Source: an uncultured Lachnospiraceae bacterium (GTDB lineage: Bacteria; Bacillota; Clostridia; Lachnospirales; Lachnospiraceae). From it: a stretch of DNA of 64,000 nt. Position numbers and translations under genes: made by a program. Under the pieces are notes generated by a model that saw nothing but the letters and a program-made list of their open reading frames with translations, had not been told where the DNA came from and did not search any database. Positions 1-44,622 of this stretch are shown here, piece after piece; the first letter of the stretch is position 1, and each line of letters begins with the position of its first letter. The stretch lies in NCBI GenBank assembly GCA_965645705.1, contig CBFFWQ010000011.1, forward strand, positions 1-64,000. Direction: 5' to 3'.

Positions 1-608
1 CTTTTCAAAAATTTGTAGTTCGGATTGTAGTGGCTGGTTTGATTCTTGTGGTATTGGTTAAACTTTTATTAGATTGCTATAAATAGGACTGACCGATAAA
101 GCAAGGTTTTTCAAATTTTCTATTTGTTTAGAGCGTTATAAAAATAACACAAATCAATGGATAAAATGATGCCTATGTTAAGTAGATTCCTACCAAACCT
201 ACTCTAAAAGCTGGTTTCAGTTGAGCTAATGCATAAGGGATTGTTCTTCACTTTTAAAATTACTAAAGATAATGAAATTGTATTAATGGTCATAATAAAA
301 ATAATTATTGTTCTTACTGAAACTTTTTACTCTGTTGTTATACTCACGAGTGGTAAATTTTACAGCTAACCTAAAAGTATACCAACTATAACAAATGTCT
401 TGCTGACGAATCTAAAGGCTCGTGAGTATAAATTCTTTCTAAATTAATAATATGAGTTCTGTTTAGCAGAAAGAAGTATACTACAAAACTAGTCACCAAA
501 TCGAAAATACCTCAAGAGCAGAACTAAAGGCTTATGGATACTTAGCATGGAAAAGGTTTTCTATCTTTTTCATCATAAATCCGCAGCAAGTAGATTAAGA
601 ACAACAAT

Positions 609-3259: not shown

Positions 3260-3441
3260 AATAGTAACCACCTTTCTTAATGTTAATAGAATTAGAATTG
3301 TACGGAAAACACAAGAATACCGAACAAATCTAATCAAGTGAGTTTAAGTAAAGATAAGGGAACAATTAATCTTTACCAACTGTTGCGGAGTAACAATACT
3401 GCTCTAAAGGCTACCACTCACAGGCATTTATAGGCAACAGA

Positions 3442-15322: not shown

Positions 15323-15602
15323 ATACACGATTAATTTAGAAAACTATAGCCTACAATACAGCCATGTGGAAACTCAAGACTATACGGTTCTAGCACAACC
15401 ATACTCATGGATTTCGATACCAATACGATATCTACAAAACAATTTACAAATCACGAAAAACTATTGAAGACAAAACAAAAAACAAAGAACAGAAAACCGA
15501 AAACAATTGACGAAAAACAAAAAATTATCCAAATGCACGAATAAGAACATCCTACTTGCCAAGCAAGTCTCATGCTTACACTGTACATTAATCACTATTC
15601 GG

Positions 15603-15677
15603 CTTTGAAAAAGGGATTTGAACCCTCGACCTTTTGATTAACCATCAAACGCTCCAACCAGACTGAGCTATTTCGAA
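15603..15677 (-). tRNA. tRNA-like gene with anticodon GUU (Asn) if the loop is read canonically. It has an atypical G at position 33 and a C-A mismatch in the acceptor stem.
   Basis: Reverse complement folds as acceptor TTCGAAA/TTTCAAA, D-arm GCTC-AGTCTGGTTG-GAGC, anticodon stem TTTGA/TCAAA with loop TGGTTAA, T-arm GAGGG-TTCAAAT-CCCTT. 75 nt; no encoded CCA. Confidence 0.5.
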
Positions 15678-16399: not shown

Positions 16400-16690
16400 C
16401 TTTTTACCACCTTTCTACTATCGAAAAATAAATGCACTTTTCCAAAATCAATAATTTATTTGCACATAAATTAAAAATACTTTTTTTATTGTTTTCACGC
16501 CGTTGATTTTAATTAAAAATTTTATGTTTTTTTCAAAAATTTTGTATTTTCTTCAAAAAAAAAAAGATTTCGTTATACTTACGAAATCTCCGAGTCACGA
16601 CACAAAGGTAAGAACCTAAGCACAAAACCCTATCATAAACAACAATACTGCAACTTACAAATGCACAGAATCTAAAAGTAATCAAGTCTG

Positions 16691-16888
16691 CTAATCAACA
16701 GACTTTTCACCTAAATGAGCTAAAGTATCATGCAATGTCTGCTGAGCATTAACTTCCTTCGTTTCTACTGTATCGAAAATAGAAAATACAAATACGCAAA
16801 CAAAAATAACGAAAATGATAAGAATATCTAAAACTACCTTACTGCTTTTGCTACTTTTTTTCATAATAATCACCTCTAATGCTTTCAA
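16691..16888 (-). CDS. Small single-TM membrane protein
   Basis: Begins MKKSSKSSK followed by a 25-aa hydrophobic helix. Confidence 0.25.
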   Translation of the reverse strand: MKALEVIIMKKSSKSSKVVLDILIIFVIFVCVFVFSIFDTVETKEVNAQQTLHDTLAHLGEKSVD

Positions 16889-17798
16889 AAATTACGGAAC
16901 TTTCTAGATTGTGTATTCACAGTATGCGTGAAGTTAGGAAATTCTTGCAAGAAAGAGAAATTGCAGATCTTTTCGTAATAAAAATGTAATATGATTTCAA
17001 AACTAAAGATATCGAAGAGAAAATCTGAACAGAGTCGGAAAAACATAAATACTACACACAATAGATTACTGATATGATAAAAGACATGATTTTAATCCAT
17101 AGGTGAGAATCTAAAGAGAGTCTTTATACAAAATAGGGTAAGAATCTAAAGCCTATAATATGGTTTTAATCATAATACTTTATTCTCTTCCTATACAAGA
17201 ATAGTAATTACTGCGAACTATCCGTTACCTAAAGTAAAGGTAATGGGCTTCTAAGAGGCTAACAACTCTATTTAAGAAGTTTGATATTTATGTTTACATC
17301 TGATAAGTCAGACAATCCTTATTCTCAGAGAAGTGTCCACTTCTCATCTACCGTATAATATGTAGTACTTTCCATGAAGGAAAAGTATCCCAAGCACAAC
17401 GCTACTTTTTCTTGTAAGCTGTATGACTATTTTTTACAGAAGGCTAACTGACATTTAAAATTTTACGTACTGTACGGCTAGACAGTACAAACACCCATTT
17501 TAACTTGCCAAAGTACAATAGAATGTGCTTATATTTGTATCACGCCATATAATTCTCAGAAAAATAAATTTTTTGTAATGCCATTCAAGCCATGATCTAA
17601 AGACATGGCTTTCTGACTGAAACTTTATAAAATTAAAGAAATAAAATTTCCTGAAAATAATAATGTAAAGAAATGTATATCAACGATAAGATTTAAAGAT
17701 GATACAGAATAAAACTTACTTTTCTTCAAAGACAGTTTTGGAGTAAAATAAATCTAAAGAAGGGCATTAATTCCATTGGCTCTATTAGAATTTGTAAA

Positions 17799-18002
17799 TT
17801 ATTGAGATTCCTCTGTTATTTCCATTAAAAGATTAAGGTTATATGGTTCTTTTCCTCTACCTATAATTAGCTCCTGATACTTTTGCTCATATAAATCCTC
17901 ATCAAATTGTGTAAAAGTTTCATCAGATGCAACATGGGACTGTCTTTCACAACAGGAAATAAAATCAGTACCAAGAAGACAAGAAAGCTCGTCTGCTTTC
18001 AT
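17799..18002 (-). pseudogene. Fragment of the retropepsin-like protein family (LLGTDFISCCERQSHVASD matches LLGADFISCCQWQCNIASD of the 34190 ORF)
   Basis: Local similarity to the C-terminal half of 34190..34774. Lies in an otherwise ORF-poor region. Confidence 0.35.
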
Positions 18003-18423
18003 TTCATAGTGCGGTCGTGCACATCACTTTATACTAAGCGGTTATGTTTTTCGACCGCTAGTATAGTAACATTAAATTTATGATTACTATCATCTATTTC
18101 GTAGATCAATTCTTTTAACATAGTAGCACTTAGAATCATACTAAATGAAACTGCTGTATCACTATTAGATATCACAGGTAAACTTGGAAACATTAAATCA
18201 CCAAGTTCAAACATAATTCGATATAAATTTCTCGTAGCTATGCCACTGAAGCCTGTAAAAGAAACATTTTTTACCAATTTAGCATTAAATTTTTCTAATA
18301 ATATCCTTTCATTTGCTGTCCAAACTGGGAAATAAGCTACAGTATCTAAAAGAACTCTTAGCCCATCTTATAATTTTATTACAGGACGTTGTTGCGTAGC
18401 ATCCAAATTTAATGTAAATTGCT

Positions 18424-18660
18424 TCATCCATGTACCCTCACCATACCTAATTGAAAGACATTATCTGGAGTAGTATACACAGCATCAACCTCTCCTTCGA
18501 TTGCCATTACTGTCAATTCATCTTTTGATTTTTCCGTGTACTTTACAACAGCAGATTCTACAGAAACTACATCATCATTTACATACCTCACATCAACCAA
18601 ACCTACCCACCTGTCAGGGTACTTTTCCTGAATTTGTTTCCATGTTAATCTTTCTTCCAT
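18424..18660 (-). CDS. Hypothetical small protein
   Basis: ORF only. Confidence 0.25.
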   Translation of the reverse strand: MEERLTWKQIQEKYPDRWVGLVDVRYVNDDVVSVESAVVKYTEKSKDELTVMAIEGEVDAVYTTPDNVFQLGMVRVHG

Positions 18661-19280
18661 AAATTACCTCCATTCTAAATAGTACGTTATCGGCTTCTCA
18701 TTCATTCTATCACAGTATTGTATTAAATTCCATAAAAAAATTACAAATTATTTTTGCTTTCAAAATGAAAAGAGAATCCAATACAATTAGCGTGTATGCC
18801 TTTTAATGACTAAATTTAAAATAGAGGAACGTTGACTATTACTTTTATGTAAAATTACAGTCTAAACTTCGGATACCTTTTGAATACAAGAAAAAGAATT
18901 ATTAAAGGTACTGTTAGCTACATCAAAATCATATTTCTTATAGCAATCCAATAAAAGTATAGCGTATTGCTAAATGCAAATTATATTATTTTCAATTTGT
19001 ATAATGCTGTTTAAATTTTTATTTGATTGCTATAAAAGCAATGAAAAACTGACCTAAAGAGCCAAGCAGAATATCGCAATCATCACTACTCATACACAAT
19101 TCACTATAATGAATTTTTAAATACTTTTCATTCTTATGATTTTATCTATCAACTTTTCTACATCTTTAGAGTCGATTTTTACCCACTGAGGTGCAGACTT
19201 AAAGGATTCCACTTGATGATTTTGTAAAAATACCATACACTGTTTTGCATTATGCTGAATCATCATTGCGTTTTTCCAAT

Positions 19281-19460
19281 ACCAGAACCACTGACTACTC
19301 CCACAGGCAAACTTGTGGTGTTCTCACTACCAAGCATAGTTCGTAATCGTACATCATTTTCAGACGTTGGAAGTACAAATATAAATCTATTTGAGTGAAA
19401 ACTTTTATTATCAAGCAGTCCAACGACCACATATTCAGAATAAACGCATAAACGGAAACA
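19281..19460. repeat. Direct repeat copy A (about 150 bp, roughly 85% identical to 20262-20420). Has a conserved small hairpin with a compensatory substitution.
   Basis: By-eye alignment. Hairpins are CCACAGG...CTTGTGG (A) and CCACAGG...CTGTGG (B). Confidence 0.6.
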
Positions 19461-19630
19461 ATTGCACAAAAAGACATTTTTGTTTATTTTACTAAAATTG
19501 AGTTAAAGTTTAACTATAACTTAAATTACAATATTCCCTACCATATTATCGCAGAAATTTCACGAAAATTACCAAAAAAATATGTAATAATATGCTTCTA
19601 TTTTCAGCAAACATTTTTCGCAAAAATGCC

Positions 19631-19660
19631 TTGACATGGGCGTTGGTAGCAAGGTATAAT
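19631..19660 (+). promoter_or_regulatory. Consensus sigma-A-type promoter (TTGACA, 18 nt, TATAAT) driving the plus-strand small ORF
   Basis: TTGACA at 19631-19636, TATAAT at 19655-19660, then AGGGAGG SD 8 nt before the ATG at 19691. Confidence 0.6.
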
Positions 19661-19690
19661 GAAAACAGTTAATGAAGGGAGGCGACAATT

Positions 19691-19900
19691 ATGAAATCAA
19701 AAAGTTTTATCGTTGGAATTGTACTATTTTTATTAGAAGTTATAGATATAATAATTTTAAATTCTATATGCTTAGAGATTGCCGCTGGAACGACAAGCTT
19801 ACTCACCATCCTTGCATCAATGCTTTTATGGATTCCTGCCTTTGTTTTTATATACATCTCGGCAGTATACCTTATAAGAAAATTATTCTGTAATTGCTAA
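19691..19900 (+). CDS. Small (69 aa) two-TM hydrophobic protein (holin-like or type-I-toxin-like)
   Basis: Strong promoter and SD. Two predicted TM helices. Bracketed by the direct repeats. Confidence 0.5.
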   Translation: MKSKSFIVGIVLFLLEVIDIIILNSICLEIAAGTTSLLTILASMLLWIPAFVFIYISAVYLIRKLFCNC

Positions 19901-20261
19901 GCCCTAATGAAATGTACTAGAGTGACTACTGCTTTAAAAAATAAAATTCATAAAACAGTAGTCACTTTTGCACGCACTCATTGTTGTGCATTCATTCTGT
20001 AACTAATCTTCTATTCTCTATTTTATATGATAGTGATTGCATAAAAGCTTCGTTACAAAACTAAAGAAATAAAATTCCCTATAAGCAATAGACTTAACAT
20101 CACTTGGTGTTAATGCCTACCTTACAAGGAAATAAATTATTCTGTTGTACCAGAAAATAATCTTTAATTTAAAAAGTTTTTCTTGCGATCTTGAATAACA
20201 GAATCTAAAGGTTTATAAAACTTCTCCAACCATCTACAACAGAAAACATTTTATTTATGAA

Positions 20262-20420
20262 TTGACCACTCCCACAGGCTAGTCTGTGGTGTTCTCACTA
20301 CAAAGCGTAGCTCGTAATCGTACATCATTTTCAAATTTTGAAAATACAAGTGTAAATCTATTTTGAATGAAAACTTTCATTACCAAGCAGTCCAATAACC
20401 ACATTAACAGTAACTTTCTG
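20262..20420. repeat. Direct repeat copy B (partner of 19281-19460)
   Basis: See copy A. Confidence 0.6.
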
Positions 20421-20614
20421 CCTTTCGACAAAGAAGTATAGTCAACCTCCATGAATATTTAAGCTGTTTTAGATTATGTGTTTATTCTAATTGTTAATTA
20501 AAAGTGGCTTTCGCCCAATACGCAAGCATGAGAGTTTTTCTCCACGAAATTATAATAACAACCAAAAAACTCAAACTTTCTGCAATACTCATAAATTTAC
20601 TTTGTAGCAATTCC

Positions 20615-28889: not shown

Positions 28890-30420
28890 CCAAATCTAAA
28901 GTTTGCACACTGGACAAACTTTGATACAACTGTCTCATGTCCATCTACTCTATCTTTGCCTACTCTGATTCTGATACCAGTACCATTTGCCCACAACCAT
29001 AAAGTACGATCATTCTTCCCTTCAAGCAGAAGCACACTCTTCTTGTTTCTTTTATTCACGTTGGCTTGTCACACTCTGCAATACCTCTCAGGAACTGTCA
29101 AAAATTAACTTTTAAATTTGAGGTTTGATAACATAGTTCCATTTTCCAAGTGTTTCACAGGGAAAAATGTTAATTCTAGCTAATTCGTCATCCGATATCT
29201 TGTGCCCGGTTTCATATACTTTCTCATCAAGCTGGCAGGTAATGGACAATCCTTTTTCTGTTGTTGTATTTGATATTAAACTGATTATTGTTTCAATATC
29301 AATCAATGGATGCCCCTGCCAATTTTTTGAAATATAACAGAACATCCTGTGTTCTATTTTGTTCCATTTTGATGTGCCGGGCGGATAATGGGAAACCATG
29401 ATCTCAAGTCCTGTATCATTGACCAACTGCTGTAATTCGTATTTCCAGTTGCGGCTATCGGAACCGTTGCTCCCACTACCATCACACGTGATATAAATTC
29501 GTTTTGCCGCAGGAAATGTATTTTTTCCAACAGCATTCCACCAACACGAAATACTGGTTACCGCAAATTCCGATGTGTCATGGCTGGTTCCGAGGTTCAC
29601 AAAACCAGTATTGTTATTGAGGACATAGACCCCGTAAGGTGCCACCTTTCCTAATTCAGGTATCGGGAAATCATGATCCAGTACTTTGCGAGGATTTTTT
29701 TCTTCTCTGTATTCTGCACCAGCGTTCTTGAAATTGCCAATGTTCTCTTTTTTCTTTGTGTCAACAGAAATAACTGGCTCCCCGTTCTCCAGATACTCGT
29801 GGGCAGTATGGTCAATCAATTCAAACTGTTTATTACGGTCTGGACTCGGTATGCCGACTTGTTCCATTTTTTGGTTCACCTGTTTGCTGTAGCCCATTTC
29901 TGCCAAAAGCTGTGATATCTTTTCATGACTTACCGTTATGGAATAATCCTCTTCGAGGATATCCCTGATTTGGCGGAGGCTGAGAGTAGATGCAACCCAG
30001 TGCAGTTCTCTGGAAGGATCGCCATATGTGCTGCCATCAATTATTTTTTCGATGGTCTCTGTGATGTTTGGATAGGTCTCCGTGATTGGTTTACGACCAG
30101 CACCTTCTTTGCGGATTCTGCTATCCGAAATAACCTCATCATTCTCGGAATCAGCCTTTCCAACAGTCAGGGTTGGATATGAGATGCCGGTTAATTCAAC
30201 AATGTGAGCCTTTCCACCGCTGCCATATACATCCGCAGCTTTACTCAAAAGGATCCGCTTACTTTTTTCATCTGATAACTTATTTATTAGCGAAACAAGT
30301 TCGTCAAATGAAGCTATATTTATAATATTCATGGCATACTGCTCCTTATCTAATCTATAAAAAGAGTATACTATAATATGCCATGATTTAAAAGTTATTT
30401 ATTGACAATTCCTCAGTAGC
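28890..30420 (-). mobile_element. ISAzo13-family insertion sequence, about 1.5 kb, visibly higher GC than its flanks
   Basis: Contains the transposase ORF. The compositional shift starts near 28890 and ends near 30400. Terminal IRs not resolved by eye. Confidence 0.55.
29112..30332 (-). CDS. ISAzo13-family DDE transposase
   Basis: 406 aa. Matches the Rhodopirellula-type DDE transposase layout (YPPGTSKWNKIEHRMF and other motifs). Confidence 0.75.
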   Translation of the reverse strand: MNIINIASFDELVSLINKLSDEKSKRILLSKAADVYGSGGKAHIVELTGISYPTLTVGKADSENDEVISDSRIRKEGAGRKPITETYPNITETIEKIIDGSTYGDPSRELHWVASTLSLRQIRDILEEDYSITVSHEKISQLLAEMGYSKQVNQKMEQVGIPSPDRNKQFELIDHTAHEYLENGEPVISVDTKKKENIGNFKNAGAEYREEKNPRKVLDHDFPIPELGKVAPYGVYVLNNNTGFVNLGTSHDTSEFAVTSISCWWNAVGKNTFPAAKRIYITCDGSGSNGSDSRNWKYELQQLVNDTGLEIMVSHYPPGTSKWNKIEHRMFCYISKNWQGHPLIDIETIISLISNTTTEKGLSITCQLDEKVYETGHKISDDELARINIFPCETLGKWNYVIKPQI

Positions 30421-32946: not shown

Positions 32947-33396
32947 TTAATCGTCTAACTTACAAACAAGAATCTCCACGCTTGTCTCTTGGAACACCTG
33001 CTGAATCTGCTCCGAAACCTTATCCCATGGCAGCTTATCCAAGCCAGCTCCAATAGTAGGCATTGCAATTTTCTTGATTCCATTCTCTTTACAAATACTT
33101 TTCATTTTCTGTAAAGCAAGTCTCATAGTAATAATACTTGGTTTTTCATAATACCGTTCTTTTGTAATTAAATTTAAAACCCTGCCTTCAAGGATACAAT
33201 CGCCACCAATACGACACCTATTATAATAACTATGATAATCTGGATACTTTTCCAACAGGCAGTTTTTCATATCAAACCTCTTGTTAAACTCTACAACGAT
33301 TCCCTTGCCCATACCAAAATCTGCACTGATGCAATGTGCCAAAAAATAATCTTCACTGACACTAAACAAGTTACACTTTCTTTCTTCGTACTGCAT
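32947..33396 (-). CDS. Macro-domain protein (ADP-ribose binding/hydrolase)
   Basis: HCISADFGMGKGIV and IAMPTIGAGLDKLPW match macro-domain signature regions. Confidence 0.7.
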   Translation of the reverse strand: MQYEERKCNLFSVSEDYFLAHCISADFGMGKGIVVEFNKRFDMKNCLLEKYPDYHSYYNRCRIGGDCILEGRVLNLITKERYYEKPSIITMRLALQKMKSICKENGIKKIAMPTIGAGLDKLPWDKVSEQIQQVFQETSVEILVCKLDD

Positions 33397-33400
33397 AACA

Positions 33401-33856
33401 CTATCCCTTCTTTCTTACAGGAATCCAAATCTCACAAGAATCCTTTGATGGATAATACTCGAGATCCCAACCTTTCACAACTTCGTATTCTTTATCATCA
33501 CAAGACAGAAATTCCCTTTTGATACAATCCCATGCATTCTGTACTGCAACAGAAGTAGAAGCTTCAAAACGAAATACAGCCCATGTCTGCTCTGGCAAGC
33601 AGAATTCCTGGAAACCTTCTGGCACATCATCAGCATCCTCTGCATACAAACCAATACCGTACTTAAACACTTCTTCGCCATTGTTTGCACAAACACCAAA
33701 ATAACAAGACACCTCTTTACCAATCTGCTTTTTGTGATGTGCATCCCACAATGCTGGAATTCCCTCCTTGCGAGTTTCCTCATTAAAATCCTCAAAATAA
33801 ACGAACAATTTTAATTCATCTTTGTTCTCAATACGACAATCCATGATAAATACCAC
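33401..33856 (-). CDS. GyrI-like (AraC effector-binding-type) small-molecule-binding domain protein, co-transcribed with the macro gene (5-nt gap)
   Basis: YFGVC...GIGLY...WAVFRF...EIWIPV pattern. Confidence 0.55.
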   Translation of the reverse strand: MVFIMDCRIENKDELKLFVYFEDFNEETRKEGIPALWDAHHKKQIGKEVSCYFGVCANNGEEVFKYGIGLYAEDADDVPEGFQEFCLPEQTWAVFRFEASTSVAVQNAWDCIKREFLSCDDKEYEVVKGWDLEYYPSKDSCEIWIPVRKKG

Positions 33857-34189
33857 CTTTCACTAAAAAGAGCAAATGTTAAAATACACTGCCTAACTAC
33901 TGGCACGATAATGAACTAAAGGACTTTTCAAGTACAGACACTGCAATCCACTAACTGCCAAAACAATACTGAAACAACGCCAAATAAAACAGTGACGATT
34001 AAATCACTGTTTTCATGAAATACAATTTTATAAATAATACGCAGAATTTCTATCTGTAAGTTCAGTATTACTCTGTTTCAATCTTTTAACTGCAAAATAA
34101 TTCTAATTTAAAGGAACTTCATTAAATAGTATCAGTCAAATCATTATTTTCTTTTAAATAAAATAATAGTACAACAATGTAAATCGCCA

Positions 34190-34774
34190 TCAATTATTAT
34201 CTTTTGTATTTCCGAAAGCATTCACTCCTGATGCATAATTATTATGATCACTAAAAATAGTATTTTGAAATGGTAAATCTAAAGAATTGAGGCTACAGAT
34301 TTGTTCTTCACTGGTATGTTGAAAAGGATTATTATAACGATAGTCATCAAATGCTGTAACTATAATATCACTTGCAATATTACACTGCCACTGACAACAC
34401 GAAATGAAATCTGCTCCCAACAATGCAGAAGGATTTACTCCGTCAGGAGTAAGATAGAAATAAAATTTTTGAATATAATAATTCCCTATTTTAGCATCTT
34501 TTATGTAACAAAGAGTTCCTATTCTTTCTTGACCAAAAACTGCTTTAAACTTTTGTTTTAAAAAGGAGCTATTATCTAAAATATTTTCCAATTCTTTTCT
34601 TTCTTTAGATGTCCAATATTCAAAATTAAGTAAAGCTGCATAGGAAATCATAGTAAGTTTCGCTCCTGTGTCAAATTTAAGTAATAACTGATTATATGAT
34701 TTATGAAAGGCATTTGTTTGTACAGCATAAGAATTTTGCTTTTCATAATACTTAGCTCTAAATAACTCATTCAA
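34190..34774 (-). CDS. Retropepsin-like aspartic peptidase (FDTGAK plus LLGADFI) ending ...SGVNAFGNTKDNN (VNAF-tail set)
   Basis: DTGA motif, downstream GxDF motif and the shared C-terminal tail. TTG start in the ORF track. Confidence 0.5.
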   Translation of the reverse strand: MNELFRAKYYEKQNSYAVQTNAFHKSYNQLLLKFDTGAKLTMISYAALLNFEYWTSKERKELENILDNSSFLKQKFKAVFGQERIGTLCYIKDAKIGNYYIQKFYFYLTPDGVNPSALLGADFISCCQWQCNIASDIIVTAFDDYRYNNPFQHTSEEQICSLNSLDLPFQNTIFSDHNNYASGVNAFGNTKDNN

Positions 34775-35144
34775 CAGATGTCACCTCCACATCGGGATAT
34801 CCAGGTAAATAAGAATAACCTTTGTCAGAACTTTGTTCATTTCGACACAAATGTACAAGTCTATTATTAAACTCTTTACTTACTGACATGGCAAAAACAT
34901 ACGCATAATCAGAACCACCAGAATATATCAAGCTATTACGATCATTAAGAAAAAAAGCCCAAAGTCCAAAATCAATTTTTAAAGGGTGCTTAAAAATTCG
35001 CAAACCTTGCTCTTCGTAATAATTATTGGAATCAAAAATCACATCCCCTTTATCATCAAAAACAGCATCCACACTCATAGAATCTACTTCATCTAAAGTA
35101 ACACTACTTAAATCATCTAACATAATAATCATCTCTTTCTTCAA
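34767..35144 (-). CDS. Hypothetical protein
   Basis: ORF only. Confidence 0.3.
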   Translation of the reverse strand: MKKEMIIMLDDLSSVTLDEVDSMSVDAVFDDKGDVIFDSNNYYEEQGLRIFKHPLKIDFGLWAFFLNDRNSLIYSGGSDYAYVFAMSVSKEFNNRLVHLCRNEQSSDKGYSYLPGYPDVEVTSVE

Positions 35145-35283
35145 TAATTATTCTTAATTAACAATTAATGTCTTGTGAAACTTCTTACAGTTTACAACTA
35201 TTATATCTTAATGTCAAGATTCAATACACTATGAATAAAATATCAACAAACCAAAATTCAACAATGACCAATTCCCATCACTA

Positions 35284-36021
35284 TTACCCCATATGCCTAC
35301 AACCATAAACGCAACCTGAGACACTCTCTAATACATCTGCAAAAACGGAATTTACCCCATAATCCTTGTAGAAAATATACTCACAATCAAAAAATTCCTG
35401 AAATAATTCAATACAACTGGAAGAGAATTCCTCAAAGAATCTTATCCCTTTTTCGTAATTGTTTAAAAATACTTGATAAACAACCCTTTCAGGAAAATAA
35501 TAACTATCCATAGGTTCACAAAGATAAGATGTAATTACGTTTTCCATCTCTTTATAAGTAAGTACTCTAGTTAAAGGTTGATCTTTAGAAGAATCGTAAG
35601 TACTGTAAATTCTATGCAGAATAAGATCTAAAGCCAAGCAGGAAAAAAGCTTATGAAGTTGCTCATCAGTACAGTTCGCAATTAATTCTTCTATCATCTG
35701 TTCTTCCTTTTTTGTAAAATCTATTATCGAATTTCCATCGTATTCTTTACCTAAAGTTTTATCTACAAGTTCTTCATAATACCATTCAAAAATTTCGTCC
35801 ATGGTTTTGATATCGAGCTCTTTTACAGGAATCCAAAGATCTTCTAATTCTTTCAACATCTGAGTCCCTTGTTCATAATAATCTTCCCATAAATCATACT
35901 TATCTCTATCAAGTCTCTTTATTTCTTCCTTAATTTCTTTTTGCAGTTCTCCCATGGAAATAGACTTTTTAAAAATAAAAGAAGAACTACTGGAATTCGT
36001 AACAAAATCTGTCCTATACTT
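35284..36021 (-). CDS. Hypothetical protein (start trimmed to MKYRTDF, AAAGGAGAAGG SD 9 nt upstream), 8-nt overlap with the upstream gene
   Basis: Strong SD. The ORF-track extension into the upstream gene is an artefact. Confidence 0.4.
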   Translation of the reverse strand, partial: KYRTDFVTNSSSSSFIFKKSISMGELQKEIKEEIKRLDRDKYDLWEDYYEQGTQMLKELEDLWIPVKELDIKTMDEIFEWYYEELVDKTLGKEYDGNSIIDFTKKEEQMIEELIANCTDEQLHKLFSCLALDLILHRIYSTYDSSKDQPLTRVLTYKEMENVITSYLCEPMDSYYFPERVVYQVFLNNYEKGIRFFEEFSSSCIELFQEFFDCEYIFYKDYGVNSVFADVLESVSGCVYGCRHMG

Positions 36022-37099
36022 CATACAGAACCTTCTCCTTTCTATTGCACAAAACAATCTGTCTTCGAATAGGACAACCACCCATACACAAGACTCTATC
36101 TTTACACAAAGGGCAAGATTGCTTGAAGAATGATCTAAAGGGACAAAACTGAGGACTGTCCCATGCTTCTTTAATAGAATGATTGTGTAAGTCAAATCCC
36201 CACCGCAGCTCCTGATTATCAAAAGAACATGGCATGGCAATCAAATCAGCACTTACATACATAGACCATCTTCCGCCTTCACAAGTATCAATACTAACTG
36301 ACTCTACCTTTCGACAACAATTCACAATTCCAGGAACACTGCAACTGTCGAATCCTATTTTAAAAGGAAAATTCCCCCTATCTACCAGATGAAAAAACTC
36401 CCTAACTTTTACATCATGAAGTTTCAATACATTCTCTTCCATACCTAAACCTATTGGTTTATGAAGAAGAAAAATAACTGCATTAATCCCCTCTGGGAAA
36501 TCTTTCTTCTTCAGCCTATCTAAAGCTTCGTCAATAGAATTGTTTCCCAGTACATAATGAATATTTGTCTTAACACCCGCCTTGATAAGTGCCTGAATCG
36601 CATCTAAAATGTGCTGCTGCCGATACCAACTAATTGCTACTGCACCACAATACTGCTTACACAATTCTACAATTTTCTCAGTAAAACCAATGCCAGAGGA
36701 AGTGAAATTAGGTACAATATGATTCTTTTTACAACACTCTAATATTTCTTTGAAGTTTTCATGCTGGTCAACGTCACCCCTCCCACCTAAAGCAAACTGA
36801 AAAGTTTTGCCTCTGCATTCCCTTGCAAGTCTTTGGAACTCACTCAAAGACATATTAGGCTTTTGTACGTGTAAGCCGTCCTGATAACACTGCACTCCTG
36901 CCTTCATGCACAATACACTCTTACCATGCATACAGTGTCCCATGACACCAACATCAATAAGTTCTGGAAAAGATGCCATGAAAGGATCTTCTCCTGTATC
37001 TTTCCCATCTCTAATGATACCTATCCTGCAATACTCCCCTGTCTTTGTATTAAAAATAGAGACAAAATGATTCTCTTCATCCACTTTTCTGATAACCAA
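36014..37099 (-). CDS. Cys-rich protein with a C-terminal CxxCx5Cx3C (SPASM/twitch-like) cluster. Possible non-canonical radical-SAM/Fe-S enzyme.
   Basis: C-terminal CPLCKDRVLCMGGCP. No canonical CxxxCxxC found. Confidence 0.3.
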   Translation of the reverse strand: MVIRKVDEENHFVSIFNTKTGEYCRIGIIRDGKDTGEDPFMASFPELIDVGVMGHCMHGKSVLCMKAGVQCYQDGLHVQKPNMSLSEFQRLARECRGKTFQFALGGRGDVDQHENFKEILECCKKNHIVPNFTSSGIGFTEKIVELCKQYCGAVAISWYRQQHILDAIQALIKAGVKTNIHYVLGNNSIDEALDRLKKKDFPEGINAVIFLLHKPIGLGMEENVLKLHDVKVREFFHLVDRGNFPFKIGFDSCSVPGIVNCCRKVESVSIDTCEGGRWSMYVSADLIAMPCSFDNQELRWGFDLHNHSIKEAWDSPQFCPFRSFFKQSCPLCKDRVLCMGGCPIRRQIVLCNRKEKVLYEV

Positions 37100-37288
37100 A
37101 ATAACACACCCTCTCTATTACTTTTTAAGCTTGTTCTTTTGCTTCTTCAATGAGTACCTCTACTTAGCAAATCTAAAGGCTCATAAGTGTAATAGAATTC
37201 TTGTGACGTGCAACTACCATAGCCTAACACCAAACATCTCACCAGAGGCATTTCGTGTTTTAAATACCTCTGGCAGATAACTCACACA

Positions 37289-38743
37289 CTATTTCTGCAA
37301 TCTACGTAACAAATCCATCTTCACGGCATAATAGTCTGGAGTGAAATCTAAATAATGCTGATGTGGATTTTCAAAACGTAACTCTTCCTTCCACACTTCA
37401 TGCTGTAATTGATGCTGTACTTGTGCCCTAATTTCTTTCAAAGAAGGTGACCTATACACTAATTCACCATTTCTAAAAATCGGAACCTGTAATTTTCTTA
37501 CGGTGTAGTTCTCAAAAAACCTCTGTTTCCATGGCATAGCTGGATCCACATACCGAAAAGGCTTCGTAAAATTAAGACATTCACTCTGTTTTCCAATTAA
37601 ATCAGCGATGGATCTACCATACTCATCGTAAATTCTGTAAACACTTTTTAAACCCGGATTCGTAATCTTTTCCACATTCTCTGAAATTTTAATACGTGGA
37701 ATAAAAGTAAGTCCATGTTTTGCCACTGCTGCCAGCTTATACACTGCACCAAAAACGGAATCACTCTTAGCAGTAATCAAACGTTCTCCAACACCAAAAA
37801 CATCAATAGCCGCATTTTGATTAACTAAAGAAGCAATTGTAAATTCATCCAGACTATTGGAAACAATCACCTTGCAATCAGACATACCAGCGTCCATTAA
37901 CATCATAGTGGCTTTCTTTGATAAATAAGCTAAATCTCCACTATCGATACGAATCCCCTTGAGCCTCTTACCTTGTGGTTCCAATACTTCTTTTGCTACT
38001 TTAATTGCATTCGGTATACCACTTTTTAACACATCATAAGTATCTACCAATAAAACACAAGCATCTGGATAAATTTCTGCATACTTCTTAAATGCGGTAT
38101 ACTCATCTTCAAAATACATTACCCAACTATGTGCCATTGTACCCGATACAGGAATCCCAAAAGTCTTTCCTGCCAGTACAGTCGCAGTACTATCTACGCC
38201 ACCAATATAAGCAGCTCTTGCACCATAGACAGCTGCATCTGCATTGTGAGCACGCCTTGCACCAAAATCAGAGACTATTCTTCCCTGAGCTGCACGAACA
38301 ATACGGCTTGCTTTTGTAGCAATTAAAGACTGATGATTTACCTGTAACAAAATTGCTGTTTCAATTAACTGAGCGTCAATCAAAGGAGCGACTACCGTAA
38401 TCACTGGCTCATTTGGATACATCACGGTTCCCTCTGGAAAAGCGTACACATCGCCGCTAAATCTAAAGTTCTGCAAATAACTTAAAAACTCTTCCTTGAA
38501 AATTTTCTGCTCACAAAGATACTCAATATCATCTTCCTCGAAATGAAGTTCCTGTATATACTCAATTATTTGTTGTAACCCAGCAAAGATAGCATAACCA
38601 CCGCCATCGGGATTCTTTCTATAAAATACATCAAAAGCCACACGCTGCTCACTTTTTGCTTGACTGCTATTAAAATAGCCATTACTCATGGTTAATTCAT
38701 AAAAATCCATGAGCATAGATAAATTCCTTTCGTTGTTTTTCAT
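37289..38743 (-). CDS. pncB: Nicotinate phosphoribosyltransferase
   Basis: LMDFYELTMSNGYF N-terminus, FGARRA, SGTMAHSW, 484 aa. AGGGGA SD. 11-nt gap from pncA. Confidence 0.85.
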   Translation of the reverse strand: MKNNERNLSMLMDFYELTMSNGYFNSSQAKSEQRVAFDVFYRKNPDGGGYAIFAGLQQIIEYIQELHFEEDDIEYLCEQKIFKEEFLSYLQNFRFSGDVYAFPEGTVMYPNEPVITVVAPLIDAQLIETAILLQVNHQSLIATKASRIVRAAQGRIVSDFGARRAHNADAAVYGARAAYIGGVDSTATVLAGKTFGIPVSGTMAHSWVMYFEDEYTAFKKYAEIYPDACVLLVDTYDVLKSGIPNAIKVAKEVLEPQGKRLKGIRIDSGDLAYLSKKATMMLMDAGMSDCKVIVSNSLDEFTIASLVNQNAAIDVFGVGERLITAKSDSVFGAVYKLAAVAKHGLTFIPRIKISENVEKITNPGLKSVYRIYDEYGRSIADLIGKQSECLNFTKPFRYVDPAMPWKQRFFENYTVRKLQVPIFRNGELVYRSPSLKEIRAQVQHQLQHEVWKEELRFENPHQHYLDFTPDYYAVKMDLLRRLQK

Positions 38744-38754
38744 CTTGATATCCC

Positions 38755-39285
38755 CTATGCAATTTTAATCTGGCAAGATGCCATTGTTTCTAAAGCTGCT
38801 TTATGTTTTTCTGGCGTTACACCTGCACAGCACTTGCTATCAACACTAATAGGAACTTCTGGAAGAAATGCTTTCAACAGAAGAGCATTAGAAACTACAC
38901 AAATATCTGTACATAATCCAATCAGCTCCACACTCTCTGGGTTCAAGCTTTTTACATCTAAAGCCAGATTCGTGCTACCAAAAGTTTCTTTCTTGTAAAT
39001 AGGACAATCTGCCAAAAGATCTCTTACTACTGGGTGCAGTTGCCAGCCTTCTTCTCCTTCTTTGCAATGCTCTACAGGTAACAATTTTCCTTCTTGAGTG
39101 AATTTATAATTCTCATGATGTGTATCCATTGTTACATAAATTTGATAATCTTCTGCTTTGCACTTCTTAATCTTTTCTACTACTGCCTGAACAATGCCCT
39201 CTGCTTCCTTAGAACCTAAAGAGCCTGTGATGAAATCATTTTGAAAATCCACTACGATGAGTACTTTGTTTCCTTTCTTTTTCAT
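38755..39285 (-). CDS. pncA: Nicotinamidase / isochorismatase-family hydrolase
   Basis: VLIVVDFQNDFITGSL, catalytic Cys context GLCTDICV, 176 aa. Confidence 0.75.
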   Translation of the reverse strand: MKKKGNKVLIVVDFQNDFITGSLGSKEAEGIVQAVVEKIKKCKAEDYQIYVTMDTHHENYKFTQEGKLLPVEHCKEGEEGWQLHPVVRDLLADCPIYKKETFGSTNLALDVKSLNPESVELIGLCTDICVVSNALLLKAFLPEVPISVDSKCCAGVTPEKHKAALETMASCQIKIA

Positions 39286-39341
39286 AATTTTTACAATTAA
39301 AAACTGATAACCACCAAGCAGCTATCAGTCTAAATATTATA

Positions 39342-39863
39342 TTATTTAATTTTCTTATCTCCAAATGCATTTACTGTATTCGCTTTTTCAAATGAGGAGG
39401 ATTTATCATTCGTATCTTTGATTTCGAAATCATCAGAAACATCTTCATCTATATCCAACATTTCAAAATCATCAAGAAATTCTATAATTTCAGAATATAA
39501 ATCATACCTTTCTTCAAAACATAATTCATAAACTTGATTAAAAGCATCTTTACTGTAGCTAATCAAGTAAGTTTTAATAAATTTATCAAAATCTCCTATA
39601 TTTTTCATTTCATGAACCAAAGAATTTCTCATATCTGTAAATGCAGTAGGTACTTTCGCTGAAATACGATTTTTCACACATTTATAATTTGCACATTTAT
39701 TTTCTTTATAACTGCAAACGAGCTGTATTGTTTCAAATAAGCGTATGATTAACAAAGTTAAAGTTGCCTCACAAGGAAAATCCCTAAAATCTCTTAAAGT
39801 TCTCGCAAGGACACGTTTAGCCTCAGAAACCTCCTCAAAAGCAACAACTTGCTTATTAGGCAT
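39342..39863 (-). CDS. HEPN-domain protein (Rx4H motif in MRNSLVHE) ending ...NTVNAFGDKKIK (VNAF-tail set)
   Basis: Rx4-6H motif in a predicted helical context, plus the shared tail. Confidence 0.45.
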   Translation of the reverse strand: MPNKQVVAFEEVSEAKRVLARTLRDFRDFPCEATLTLLIIRLFETIQLVCSYKENKCANYKCVKNRISAKVPTAFTDMRNSLVHEMKNIGDFDKFIKTYLISYSKDAFNQVYELCFEERYDLYSEIIEFLDDFEMLDIDEDVSDDFEIKDTNDKSSSFEKANTVNAFGDKKIK

Positions 39864-40182
39864 TTAACCACCGCCCATCTCTGTAAACACACGTTAAATT
39901 ACGAATACCTGTTTGCTTTGGGTCAAAATCTTTTACTTTCTCTCGTACAACACCATGCCAATAATTTGTTTCTTCATCAGAATATAATTCTTCAAACTCC
40001 TCTACATCAATTACAGTAATATCATTTGAATCAATAATTAGCCATAATAATGAATGATACGTAGGATCATCAAAATTTTTTGGCTCTGTTACCCACAATT
40101 CCTTAGCTAAAGGATTTTCCATTAAATCTTCCCATTTCTTTCTTACAATTTCTCTATTCAATTCCATGATTAACACCTCCAT
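39856..40182 (-). CDS. Small acidic protein, tandem paralog B (about 75% aa identity to 40311..40619). Its stop overlaps the HEPN start, making it a candidate immunity/antitoxin partner.
   Basis: 8-nt overlap with the HEPN gene. Paralogy extends to the nucleotide level. Confidence 0.45.
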   Translation of the reverse strand: MEVLIMELNREIVRKKWEDLMENPLAKELWVTEPKNFDDPTYHSLLWLIIDSNDITVIDVEEFEELYSDEETNYWHGVVREKVKDFDPKQTGIRNLTCVYRDGRWLNA

Positions 40183-40310
40183 ATTTTAATAAAAACTATA
40201 AGTACCTTCATAAATATTTTATCACATTATAAAATAAATGTCCAACTATTATTCTACAATTAACTTTTACTTCTTTCGCATAATCAATTATTTTCTCTAT
40301 AATACTATAG

Positions 40311-40619
40311 CTAGTGCAACCACCGCCCATCTCTATAAACACACGTTAAATTATGAATACCTGTCTGTTTTGGATCAAAATCTTTCGTTTTTTCTCGCAC
40401 AATACCATACCAGTAATTTGCTTCTTTATCGGAATAAAGTTCTTCAAACGCATCTACATCAATCACCGTTACATCATCAGAATCAACAACAAGATGTAAT
40501 GACGGATGACACGTAGGATCATCAAAATTCGCTGCTTCTGTCACCCACAATTCCATAGCTAAAGGGTTCTTCATTAACTCTTCCCAGCGTTTTCTTATAA
40601 ATTCTCTATTAGTCACCAT
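40311..40619 (-). CDS. Small acidic protein, tandem paralog A
   Basis: Same family as 39856..40182. Confidence 0.45.
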   Translation of the reverse strand: MVTNREFIRKRWEELMKNPLAMELWVTEAANFDDPTCHPSLHLVVDSDDVTVIDVDAFEELYSDKEANYWYGIVREKTKDFDPKQTGIHNLTCVYRDGRWLH

Positions 40620-40634
40620 GTCACAATCACCTGC

Positions 40635-41696
40635 CTAAACATCTGATAATGCCTTAATAATACCACACGCCTTATAATGTTGCAATGGATAATACTCTAT
40701 GGAAACTTCTTTTTCTTTCGCCAATTGTTTGATACTATTCAAACAAGGGTCAACAGCAGACGCTTCGCTCACTAACACTTTCCACGGAACTCTCCTTAAT
40801 AGCACTCTTGTAGTTTCTCCAATTCCTGGCTTAATAAGGTTCACGTCCTTAATTTTAAATTTTTCCGCCAATTTCCTGACTTCGTCAATGCCATGACCTA
40901 AAGGGACAGAATCTTGTACCATAGAATTTTCTTGAAACTCCGACTCAATGGCATTAATGAATTCATACGACAAATCAGAATCTTTCAATTCTTCATAATA
41001 AACAGCACCATGAAAATCATTAACTCCAATAACATCATCACGTAAAAAAGTTCTGCTAATTAAACCTGAAACAGTACTGTTTAAACAAGAACTTGGTATT
41101 AATAAATCTTCATGAGTACCGCATAATTCCGTTACATTCGCTGGGTCAGCTACAACAGCAAGTTCTGGATTAACACCAGGGTAATCAACTAAAGCTTTCT
41201 GCAATGTATTCTGGATTGCACCTTTACCAATCCAACCATCGACAAACAGAAGATCACCTGCATCATACTGCCCCAACAACCATTTCATTGCATTGTGATC
41301 GATACCCTTACCACGAATAATAGAAATGGAATAGTGCGGAACTTCTATTTGCCACTTCCACTTTAAATACCGTTTCAGCAAAATCCCAATCGGAGTACCT
41401 GCACGAGCTAAAGAAACCAGCACAACATTCTTTCCACGAGCCTGCACAATCTTCTCTGCAAGCACTCCAAGGGCAACAGCTACTGGCTTTGCATAGTCCC
41501 TAAGAGCTGCTTGATATACTTCTAAATATCTTTGACTTGGTACATACTCAATAGGCAACATCTCACAATAATGCTTACCACTCTGAATTAGCTTTTCTCT
41601 TTCTTCCGTTGACTGAGGCTTTACCAGTCCAGTAATATCCTTTAACAATAAAACTACATCATCCTCTGAATACGAACTTCTCAACTCTAACACCAC
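40635..41696 (-). CDS. StiP-like protein (the family usually paired with an atypical PRTase in Ter-associated metabolite modules). Overlaps the PRTase gene by 10 nt.
   Basis: Size, operon partner and recalled family resemblance only. Confidence 0.35.
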   Translation of the reverse strand: MVLELRSSYSEDDVVLLLKDITGLVKPQSTEEREKLIQSGKHYCEMLPIEYVPSQRYLEVYQAALRDYAKPVAVALGVLAEKIVQARGKNVVLVSLARAGTPIGILLKRYLKWKWQIEVPHYSISIIRGKGIDHNAMKWLLGQYDAGDLLFVDGWIGKGAIQNTLQKALVDYPGVNPELAVVADPANVTELCGTHEDLLIPSSCLNSTVSGLISRTFLRDDVIGVNDFHGAVYYEELKDSDLSYEFINAIESEFQENSMVQDSVPLGHGIDEVRKLAEKFKIKDVNLIKPGIGETTRVLLRRVPWKVLVSEASAVDPCLNSIKQLAKEKEVSIEYYPLQHYKACGIIKALSDV

Positions 41697-42817
41697 CTAA
41701 CTAATGTAATACTCTTATTACCACACGAAACTAAAGCATTCACTAAAGAATAAACCCCAGTAGCTACTAACTCTTCGGCATCGGTCAAAATAAATACTTG
41801 ATCGTACTTGGTCAAATTATACACAAAAGTCTTCCTGCCTTTTTCATACAAGCTGACTAATTCCCATCGCTCGTGTAATGGATACTCTTTCTCTGTACTG
41901 ACTGCAATAGGACTACGTGTTGTAGCATGGAACTTAACGGTAACTCCTGCCAAATCTTCTATTTTCTTCGCTACGTACAAAACTGGATACATAAATTCTT
42001 CTGTACCCAAAACTAAAGTACTGCTGTCAGGTAATACTCTACTTTTCATACTATTCCAGAAAAAATTACACACTGCCTGATAATCTGCTGGTGAAGACAA
42101 CTTGCGGGTATCAATGCCACACTGCACGTTAATGCACTCTATGGGACAAACATCACAATCCAAATCATGATAATAACCATCTTCTCTATAACCATTCGCA
42201 ATCGCTTCATAGCCTCTATGGTCTGTCTTAACGAGATAATGCACTTGAATTCCACGATTTTCAAAATGGGCAAGAGCTTCCCTGTCCATACCATTTAAAA
42301 GAGAAGCAACAGAATACTGAAGTCTGTCAGACCATTCTTTCTCCATAGCACCAATCAAATCGAGAATCGTATTCCCTGTTGTTACTTCATCTTCTACAAA
42401 AACAATACGCTTAATCTTACCATGTAGAATGGTTTCTTTCATGCCGTCTTTCACTAACTTCTGTTCTGTAGCATGGCTATGTGATTCTGTAAAAAAAAGA
42501 TAATCTGCCTGATACAAGCACTCTCTTGTGGTCTGCACATACTGCATTCCAAGTTTCATTGCTACGCACGCACCAATTGCCGTAGCTGTCCCAGCGAACC
42601 CAATAACTAAAGTAGAATCTTTATCATACTGATTTGCAAGCAAATTACTAAGTTGACTGAATAAAGAAAATGTTTCTGTCGGAGAAACTGGTACGTGCTT
42701 TCCTTGCAATGGGTTAACTACAAGATACTTTCTTTTATTATTATTTTCTCTTTTGGCAATCTTTACCAAATCACTTTCACTGTACAAAATAAAAACTCCT
42801 TCCTTAATCATACTCAC
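41687..42817 (-). CDS. Phosphoribosyltransferase-domain protein (large atypical PRTase)
   Basis: PRPP-binding motif IVFVEDEVTTGNT. Confidence 0.65.
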   Translation of the reverse strand: MSMIKEGVFILYSESDLVKIAKRENNNKRKYLVVNPLQGKHVPVSPTETFSLFSQLSNLLANQYDKDSTLVIGFAGTATAIGACVAMKLGMQYVQTTRECLYQADYLFFTESHSHATEQKLVKDGMKETILHGKIKRIVFVEDEVTTGNTILDLIGAMEKEWSDRLQYSVASLLNGMDREALAHFENRGIQVHYLVKTDHRGYEAIANGYREDGYYHDLDCDVCPIECINVQCGIDTRKLSSPADYQAVCNFFWNSMKSRVLPDSSTLVLGTEEFMYPVLYVAKKIEDLAGVTVKFHATTRSPIAVSTEKEYPLHERWELVSLYEKGRKTFVYNLTKYDQVFILTDAEELVATGVYSLVNALVSCGNKSITLVRWC

Positions 42818-43794: not shown

Positions 43795-44622
43795 TTAGGA
43801 TACTACTAAATCATAAAGTTCTTTCGGTAAATAATTCCTTAAGAGCTCATCTGCATTTGGAACAGTCTCATGATAAAATTCCTCTGCAATGCCACCACCG
43901 ATTGCACATAGTGTATCCGTGTCGCAACGAATGCTCAGCACATTCCTGAGAAAACTCTCATAATCTTCAGAATCTAAAAAGCATCGAATTGCTACAGGAA
44001 TACTTCCTTGACAAGTTGTATCCCAACCACACTCTCTCCGCATCTCATCTAAAGTCATAGATACTGGATACAAACATGAACTATCTGGATACTGCTTAAG
44101 AGCATACTCCCCAATCTCCTTTTTAGATGCACCTGTCTTTGCCATGAAACCACATACTGCCGTAACCACAGCACCTTTAATACCTTCTGCATGATTATGC
44201 GTACACGCAGCAGAACTTTCTGCATACTGAGATACTGATCCTAATGTATCAAAGAAATCTACAACAGGAGAGACTCTCATGGCAGAACCATTACCGCAAC
44301 TATTGTAAGGTTGCCTGTCACAAGATTTTAACCATTTACTAAAACCGCCGCCATAACTACAATCAGGATACTTAATCCCAAATTCGTAATAAGCATCTGC
44401 AAACGATACGTTATTTTGCAACGCATACTTTGTTGCAATTGTTAAAACGGTATCATCAGTATAAAAACAATCTTTTGCAAATAATTCTACACCTTTCCAA
44501 TCAAGATTCCATGGTCGATTAAATTCCCATTTAGAACCTGTAATGTCACCTAAAATTACACCTATTATTGCCAATGGCAAACACTCCTCTCTGTTCTGAC
44601 CTAAAGGGAAGTCGTAAATCAA
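43795..44622 (-). CDS. ADP-ribosylglycohydrolase (ARH/DraG family)
   Basis: GDITGS, YTDDT, GNGSAMR, HNHAEG and GGGIAEE motifs. Confidence 0.75.
   Translation of the reverse strand: MIYDFPLGQNREECLPLAIIGVILGDITGSKWEFNRPWNLDWKGVELFAKDCFYTDDTVLTIATKYALQNNVSFADAYYEFGIKYPDCSYGGGFSKWLKSCDRQPYNSCGNGSAMRVSPVVDFFDTLGSVSQYAESSAACTHNHAEGIKGAVVTAVCGFMAKTGASKKEIGEYALKQYPDSSCLYPVSMTLDEMRRECGWDTTCQGSIPVAIRCFLDSEDYESFLRNVLSIRCDTDTLCAIGGGIAEEFYHETVPNADELLRNYLPKELYDLVVS

Follow-up and report, generated by a model that had tools for sequence, protein, structure and literature searches.

A putative HEPN-family protein gene coupled to a duplicated small acidic partner gene on a Lachnospiraceae-associated contig

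The 64,000-nt stretch of contig CBFFWQ010000011.1 analyzed here (the window), from an uncultured Lachnospiraceae bacterium, carries on its minus strand a gene for a 173-amino acid (aa) HEPN-like protein, preceded by two copies of a gene for a small acidic protein. A sequence-only reading of the window had proposed that these genes encode a HEPN toxin and its tandemly duplicated neutralizing partners, and the three minus-strand open reading frames (ORFs) that it listed are all present. The genes and their flanking features are as follows.

40311..40619, minus strand: sA, the distal copy of the small acidic partner gene (ORF, 102 aa, isoelectric point [pI] 4.8)
40216..40244, minus strand: promoter-like site in the sA/sB spacer, found by a consensus scan (TGGACA, 17 nt, TAAAAT, with a TG upstream of the -10 hexamer)
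39856..40167, minus strand: sB, the copy of this partner gene proximal to the HEPN-like gene (103 aa when translated from the ATG at 40167, pI 4.5)
39856..39863, minus strand: overlap of the sB end and the start of the HEPN-like gene (8 nt, ATGCCTAA)
39342..39863, minus strand: gene for the HEPN-like protein (ORF, 173 aa)
39301..39331, minus strand: intrinsic-terminator-like hairpin (14-bp stem, then UUUUUAAUU), 11 nt past the stop codon of the HEPN-like gene

The 8-nt overlap that had been described between a 108-aa ORF and the start of the HEPN-like gene can be seen directly in the sequence. The 3' end of sB reads ...TGG TTA AAT GCC TAA, and the embedded ATG is the start of the 173-aa ORF. 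While the longest ORF of sB does encode 108 aa (39856..40182, minus strand), the more likely product has 103 aa and begins at the ATG at 40167 rather than at 40182, because a ribosome-binding site, GGAGGTG, is located 8 nt 5' of the former and the 103-aa product matches the homologues. sB is identical to the database protein P0015. The second copy directly upstream, sA, had been put at approximately 75% identity; the two proteins are 74% identical over 102 aa without gaps (BLASTP E = 1e-59), and the duplication is still apparent in the DNA, with about 80% identity within the ORFs and 85% mean column identity when the flanks are included. Both small proteins are acidic, as proposed (pI 4.5–4.8), and the 173-aa protein is likewise acidic (pI 4.8).

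sA starts 15 nt past the stop codon of the StiP gene and therefore has no promoter of its own in the window. The promoter-like site lies in the spacer between sA and sB, and its hexamers are identical in the window, in the sister lineage L017, and in both units of the 950-nt contig L028, with a variable spacer between the hexamers. An AT-rich inverted repeat of 8 nt lies over the -10 hexamer and may be a chance occurrence. That this site functions as a promoter is what we infer from its sequence. On the other side of the pair, the terminator-like hairpin folds at -17.6 kcal/mol (z = -4.5), and none of 200 shuffled sequences folded equally well. Because of the promoter-like site in the spacer and the terminator-like hairpin, sB and the HEPN-like gene look like an autonomous bicistronic unit. 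The layout has the features of a type II system: small adjacent genes, the partner first, overlapping frames, and a putative promoter and terminator.

The AlphaFold2 model of the 173-aa protein is all-alpha with a mean predicted local distance difference test (pLDDT) score of 82, and most of residues 11–130 score above 90. The predicted helical core (residues 9–132) contains helices 9–28, 32–53, 74–84, and 92–103 and two extra C-terminal helices, with an insert of residues 54–73 between helices 2 and 3, and is followed by a tail (136–173) that is predicted to be disordered and acidic. The Rx4H motif pointed out in the sequence-only reading is present as RNSLVH at residues 79–84, and a further conserved residue lies in helix 2.

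39612..39629, minus strand: codons for R79-N-S-L-V-H84 (Rx4H), at the C-terminal end of predicted helix 74–84
39732..39734, minus strand: codon for E44, an invariant acidic residue in predicted helix 2 (32–53)

In the family alignment (A4) of 25 members, whose identity to the window protein ranges from 20 to 95%, only the columns of E44 and H84 are invariant. R79 and L82 are conserved in at least 90%, and R79 is almost always followed by N or D (by Q in one member and by H in another). The conservation of R79, L82, and H84 and the N or D after R79 therefore define a family motif of R-[ND]-x-L-x-H-[NE]. Even among relatives that are only 20 to 37% identical, H84 is invariant and R79 nearly so. 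By our own estimate, the chance expectation of a bare Rx4H string in a protein of this size is about 0.2, and the motif is meaningful here because it is conserved across the family, not by its presence alone.

According to a survey of HEPN proteins, the core has four helices, frequently with an insert between the second and the third. Helix 3 ends in a conserved Rx4-6H motif that extends into the loop before helix 4, and the Arg of this motif is immediately followed by a polar residue (N, D, or H). Many families also have another conserved acidic residue near the motif, which is located in helix 2 and typically takes the form Ex3[KR] (PMC3710099). These four hallmarks recur in the 173-aa protein. 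The predicted structure has the four-helix core and its insert, predicted helix 74–84 ends with R79-x4-H84, which leads into the loop, the Arg is followed by N or D in nearly all members, and E44 provides the acidic residue of helix 2, although the Lys or Arg at the +4 position of Ex3[KR] is absent. When the model was compared with the PDB using Foldseek, about 14 of the top 23 rows were proteins with a HEPN domain or nucleotidyltransferases whose C-terminal domain is HEPN-like (E of at least 0.4, template modeling score 0.35–0.47), with HepT-type toxins (8xdj/8xeh/8yuf and 7bxo), YutE (1ylm), sacsin (3o10), AF0298 (2hsb), and nucleotidyltransferases (1kan/6nmk and 3jyy) among them. The Pfam HepT-like family (PF01934) was weakly matched by two of the 25 members (E 0.019) and AbiU2 by one (E 0.049), and a profile search of the PDB aligned HepT 6m6u on the motif at a sub-significant E of 3.9. 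A viral structure library returned nothing significant for the 173-aa protein, and the Pfam, NCBIfam, PHROG, and PADLOC models gave no match for it, sA, or sB. The earlier HEPN call thus agrees with the four published hallmarks, as seen in the AlphaFold model and the family alignment, but lacks a significant match to a known HEPN family. With the fold and motif geometry predicted in this way, we consider it probable that the 173-aa protein belongs to the HEPN superfamily.

This HEPN family is rare and was previously unannotated. A word-indexed search of 5.8 billion proteins yielded 14 relatives and a HMMER profile search of 1.84 billion representatives yielded 30 (clusters at 50% identity), while the GTDB species representatives contained one locus, on a 2-kb contig. 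Among 50,697 phage records, nothing was found either by megablast of the 9-kb neighborhood or by tblastn of both proteins, and a scan of IMG/VR gave no match. Many contigs, some of them long, encode HEPN proteins of this family that are truncated or carry an internal deletion (P0009, P0014, P0089, and P0091), P0014 being on a contig of 91 kb; some of these proteins may simply end where their contigs end. Their recurrence hints, from sequence, at frequent inactivation in natural populations.

A profile search for relatives of sA and sB that included distant members produced 26 proteins, none with a Pfam domain. The conserved partner positions are aromatic or acidic (W25, F32, D34, E59, Y95, D97, and W100) plus L101, and the C-terminal motif Y-x-D-G-x-W-L is encoded right at the gene junction. 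We rejected an MNT identity for the partner, with neither a nucleotidyltransferase match nor a GS...DxD-type motif. As the partner is not a nucleotidyltransferase, neutralization by AMPylation is not expected.

The flanks of the HEPN gene were read in nine lineages (the window, L001, L003-6/L013, L007, L008, L009-11, L012, L023, and L024/25), with distant partner and HEPN homology checked by BLAST and hidden Markov models. In all nine, the gene immediately preceding the HEPN gene encodes a partner homologue. The arrangements are listed below by partner copies, spacing between partner and HEPN gene, and neighboring genes.

Window and L014-16: two partner copies; 8-nt overlap; StiP, PncA-like, and PncB
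L001: two partner copies of 129 aa; 14-nt gap; GmrSD_N and AAA-ATPase genes
L003-6 and L013: one partner copy; 8-nt overlap; PIN/DUF4325 and AAA-ATPase_like/PDDEXK_9, in a metagenome-assembled genome labeled Lachnospiraceae
L009-11 and L023: one partner copy; 13- to 16-nt gap; DnaG-Zn, HSP70, and a 2350-aa ORF, on phage-like contigs of 115 to 131 kb
L012 and L024/25: one partner copy; 8-nt overlap; DnaB upstream and a NADAR-DarT1-like gene downstream
L007: partial partner on a short contig; 43-nt gap
L008: partial partner on a short contig; 11-nt overlap

The pair is therefore seen in unrelated contexts, namely with GmrSD/AAA-ATPase genes, with PIN-DUF4325/PDDEXK genes, and on DnaG/DnaB phage-like contigs. 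The partner and HEPN proteins diverge in parallel, with identities of 79 and 69%, 64 and 57%, and approximately 25 and 30%, respectively. In three database proteins (P0012, P0013, and P0032), the two are fused in frame, with the partner N-terminal and the HEPN domain C-terminal, which is a link of the Rosetta-stone type at the level of sequence; fused MNT-HEPN toxin–antitoxins are known and set a precedent for fusion (PMC13000451). L009 and L012 have two small genes upstream, of which only the HEPN-adjacent one is a partner homologue, and a three-gene system was rejected. The copy number of the partner, which had been singled out as worth comparing among relatives, does vary: two copies are present in the window and L014-16 and in L001, and one is present in L003-6/L013, L009-12, and L023-25.

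The pair is also lost asymmetrically. In at least 24 contigs from different samples that are syntenic to the window (L017-L022), the HEPN gene, the PncA-like gene, PncB, and the 5' part of a radical-SAM gene are deleted. These contigs retain an intact partner, P0016, that is 87% identical to sB and is followed by the relic ATGCCTA. In L017, a frameshift and a stop codon mark the copy at the sA position as a pseudogene, and this copy is chimeric, with a 5' end like that of sB and a 3' end like that of sA. A similar picture is seen in L026/27, where the partner is fused to a small upstream ORF (P0107) and the next gene is DnaG-Zn instead of a HEPN gene; in L009, a HEPN gene occupies this position. 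In addition, P0009 is a HEPN variant from which an internal deletion has removed the motif. Every intact HEPN gene in the flanks read, a small sample, was accompanied by a partner. Retention of the partner with loss of the HEPN gene is the pattern expected, as judged from sequence, if the HEPN protein were harmful without its partner.

As the comparison with L017-L022 (syntenic to approximately 33000..41700 of the window) shows, the region between StiP and the Macro-like gene is a hot spot for gene turnover. L017-L022 have acquired an inserted EndoV-like gene of 170 aa and a HipA_C-like gene of 380 aa, and the HipA-like gene now stands behind the putative promoter that in the window precedes sB and the HEPN gene.

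DNA similarity between sA and sB extends from about 45 nt 5' of the start codon to the stop codon. Nonsynonymous divergence (dN) is 0.157 and synonymous divergence (dS) is 0.658 (up to 1.1), giving a dN/dS of 0.24 by the Nei–Gojobori method (NG86) and 0.14 by maximum likelihood, and sA, sB, and the HEPN gene are all under purifying selection. The dN/dS and dS of sA versus sB show that the duplication is genuine and old and that the window genome has maintained it. In a neighbor-joining tree, sA groups with P0019 (82% identity), and the two are sister to the group of sB and P0016-18. The origin of the repeat is illustrated by L028, in which a copy of the promoter region precedes the P0019 gene. 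This gene ends in TGG TTG AAT GCC AAA TAA and is overlapped by ATG CCA AAT AAA CAA, a frame that reads MPNKQ, the first five HEPN codons, with two synonymous differences from the window. After this relic come a spacer with the promoter and then an sB-type copy. From this arrangement, the repeated unit comprises the promoter, the partner, and the first 15 nt of the HEPN gene, so that the earlier description of a duplication of the partner alone was roughly right, the true unit being somewhat larger. Judged by sequence, a single partial tandem duplication would explain this unit most simply; less simply, the entire module could have been duplicated and one HEPN copy then precisely removed. The sA of the window now lacks both the HEPN relic and a promoter of its own, having lost them after the duplication. 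It is under purifying selection in the window, but a pseudogene occupies its position in the sister lineage L017. The second copy may serve dosage or immunity diversification, as the sequence-only reading had suggested, or have no role. The 129-aa copies of L001 are 73% identical to each other and 52 to 64% identical to the window copies, and they share a C-terminal extension that is absent in the window copies; they therefore arose independently or were homogenized.

Taken together, we favor the interpretation that the cassette is a new HEPN-family toxin/neutralizer or an abortive-infection-type module in which the small protein inhibits a ribonuclease (RNase) by binding, with sA as an extra neutralizer copy, and we give this a probability of roughly 0.55. 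RNase activity, toxicity, neutralization by binding, and any role of sA are what we infer from the genetic and structural picture. The 173-aa protein would be a metal-independent RNase with an active site made of R79, H84, and E44 that, like those of other HEPN enzymes, probably spans the interface of a dimer. The small acidic protein, whose translation immediately precedes that of the RNase, would bind the RNase and hold it inactive, and the module would thus act as a protein–protein (type II-like) toxin/neutralizer or in abortive infection. sA would have arisen as an extra neutralizer copy by tandem duplication of a unit of about 450 nt (promoter, partner, and first 15 nt of the HEPN gene). 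Without a promoter of its own, it may be read through from the upstream PRTase_2/StiP operon, and it could add to or buffer the supply of neutralizer or cover related incoming HEPN toxins. The part of the earlier proposal that paired a toxin with a small neutralizing partner is in line with the conserved coupled pair, its unrelated contexts, its putative promoter and terminator, and the asymmetric loss, but the partner is unlike MNT, the usual partner of HEPN proteins.

Several points weigh against a toxin and its neutralizer. The HEPN hallmarks come from a structure that was predicted from a shallow alignment of 15 sequences, the profile and structure searches found no statistically significant similarity to any known HEPN family, and the Arg of the motif is absent in a few members (P0012, P0045, and P0047). 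The putative toxin is itself acidic. As the AlphaFold model of the small partner is poor (pLDDT 56), no model supports its binding to the HEPN protein. Type II antitoxins usually carry a DNA-binding domain, and family searches detected none in the partner. For the fused forms, a regulatory or sensing domain is no worse an explanation than a labile antitoxin. Finally, the pair holds a fixed position among the replication genes of the phage-like contigs and, because of this, looks inherited rather than mobile.

The three independent fusions, all with the partner N-terminal to HEPN, and the lack of a detected DNA-binding domain would suit a defense module in which the small protein is a regulatory or sensing subunit (a domain in the fusions). 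It would restrain the HEPN RNase until a trigger appears, for instance a protein of a phage or competitor, and diverged copies such as sA and sB would widen the range of triggers. In fused CapRel-type systems, a C-terminal domain likewise holds the effector off until a trigger arrives. The defense-like neighbors in L001, L003-6, and L017 (GmrSD_N, PIN/DUF4325, PDDEXK_9, and HipA-like) also agree with such a role, as does the duplication of the partner in two lineages, with both window copies under purifying selection. However, orphan partners outlast HEPN in two lineages, which is easier to understand for a neutralizer than for a sensor without an effector, and we regard this explanation as unlikely, though worth keeping in view. 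Somewhat less likely still is that the two are a non-toxic helical pair that serves a large mobile element or phage in a housekeeping or accessory capacity, such as in RNA processing or replication-associated regulation; the Rx4H protein may then be a site-specific RNase or a mere nucleotide-binding protein, and the duplication would be a neutral relic. Such a role would fit the position by DnaG-Zn, DnaB, and HSP70 genes that is fixed across diverged lineages on phage-like contigs of 115 to 143 kb, the sub-significant HEPN similarity, the acidity of both proteins, and the pseudogene at the sA position of L017. It is harder to reconcile with the family's only invariant residues being those expected of a HEPN RNase active site, with the presence of the cassette in unrelated contexts with defense-like neighbors, and with losses in which HEPN is gone and the partner is kept.

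The partner copies that are not attached to a HEPN gene (sA, the non-adjacent copy of L001, and the orphans of L017-22 and L026) could alternatively be stand-alone immunity genes against the HEPN toxins of competing phages or elements, which we consider a tentative suggestion with the odds against it. If so, the repeated partner-only duplications might reflect an arms race rather than dosage, a possibility that we hold to be similarly doubtful. As a variant, the partner could be a trigger-sensing domain whose duplication widens the response of the HEPN effector. It is very improbable, on the other hand, that the three genes are part of the surrounding NAD/ADP-ribose and PRTase-StiP pathway, with HEPN as a nucleotide-binding subunit as in kanamycin nucleotidyltransferase. 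The three genes do lie between StiP and the PncA-like gene and PncB on the same strand, with sA immediately behind StiP, and in L012, L024, and L025 a NADAR-DarT1-like gene comes next after HEPN. Yet the pair has its own putative promoter and terminator and occurs without these neighbors in L001, L003-6, L009, and L023, and L017-22 keep the PRTase-StiP genes with HEPN, PncA, and PncB deleted. Moreover, Rx4H is kept in this family, whereas it is wholly or partly lost in HEPN domains at the C termini of nucleotidyltransferases (PMC3710099). A link to the NAD/PRTase operon was rejected, as the contexts vary.

Among known systems, the cassette appears functionally most like the HEPN toxin–antitoxins of the HepT/MntA or RnlA/RnlB type, by analogy. 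Like HepT/MntA (type VII), it has a small single-domain HEPN protein (approximately 130–170 aa in HepT) with R-N-x-x-x-H and a tightly coupled partner gene upstream, and separate and fused architectures exist in both, the latter including fused FhepTA (PMC13000451). The best structural matches are HepT-type toxins (8xdj, 8xeh, and 7bxo), at sub-significant scores. However, the defining feature of HepT/MntA, an MNT partner that AMPylates the toxin, is not found here, and an acidic tail and two C-terminal helices are additional features of the window protein. In RnlA/RnlB and LsoA/LsoB, the toxin is a large protein of several domains and the antitoxin gene lies downstream, whereas here a single-domain HEPN protein of 173 aa has its partner upstream. 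No sequence similarity to RnlA/RnlB or LsoA/LsoB was detected in the library and profile searches. What the cassette would share with them, as proposed here, is a HEPN RNase checked by direct binding of a small non-enzymatic protein. RnlA/RnlB and LsoA/LsoB, with phage T4 Dmd, are reported to work as an anti-phage module (PMC8266594). The Abi-type HEPN proteins (AbiU2, AbiJ, and AbiV) resemble the 173-aa protein as stand-alone HEPN effectors of abortive infection on mobile elements, but they gave no significant match and lack a conserved small upstream partner. The toxinless copies (sA, the upstream copy of L001, P0016 of L017-22, and P0107 of L026) recall the orphan antitoxin and immunity genes of anti-addiction and of polymorphic toxins. 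This likeness is one of genetic pattern only.

The surroundings of the cassette share an NAD/ADP-ribose and phosphoribosyl theme (32947..33856, 37289..39285, 40635..42817, and 43795..44622, all minus strand), with genes for ADP-ribosylglycohydrolase, PRTase_2+TRSP, StiP+PELOTA_1, a PncA-like isochorismatase, NAPRTase (PncB), and Macro-like and GyrI-like proteins. At the distant phage-like loci L012, L024, and L025, the gene right after HEPN belongs to this theme as well, being NADAR-DarT1-like. As a speculation, this neighborhood may be a counter-defense or NAD-replenishment island. Further along the minus strand, a radical-SAM/SPASM-like gene of 361 aa (36014..37099) has weak Pfam matches and a match to PHROG 7293 (E = 1e-17); it overlaps the longest ORF of the next gene (35284..36240), for which the L014 calls give a product of 246 aa. 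An intact ISAzo13-family DDE transposase gene (29112..30332, minus strand; PF07592, E = 3e-115) has the same relative position in L017-L022.

The remainder of the window is sparsely annotated, and most of its ORFs that were tested have no Pfam or PHROG match. On the minus strand, 737..3337, 9036..10226, and 11421..12419 encode an 866-aa protein with Major Vault Protein shoulder/repeats, a STAND/KAP-like NTPase, and an SPFH/Band-7 protein, a set that is unusual for a low-GC bacterial or phage-like element. The GC content of the window is 34%. Of its 81 ORFs of at least 90 aa, 66 are on the minus strand, and most of those on the plus strand overlap a minus-strand ORF. A 4-kb stretch (16400..20600) has only ORFs below 85 aa, and the window has one tRNA-Asn (15601..15677) adjoined by A-rich repeats of 21 nt (15436..15524). 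The clamp-loader gene matches phage PHROGs, and related contigs of up to 285 kb are binned as Lachnospiraceae. Judged from sequence features, the replicon could be a huge phage, a plasmid, or a chromosomal island. L014, L015, and L016 (position 1..66), independent assemblies with the exact HEPN protein of the window, all break at one point inside PRTase_2, which suggests a repeat or a strain-variable junction.

If the proposed toxin/neutralizer function holds, a HEPN family with a non-enzymatic, non-MNT partner would be added to the HEPN conflict systems, while the general understanding of HEPN systems would stay unchanged. The natural series of separate and fused genes, duplicated partners, orphan partners, and deleted HEPN genes would be useful for studying how HEPN proteins are restrained and how neutralizers outlive their toxins. 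Because the family occurs in large elements associated with gut Lachnospiraceae and on phage-like contigs, it may have a bearing on competition between phages and their hosts, and among phages, in the gut.

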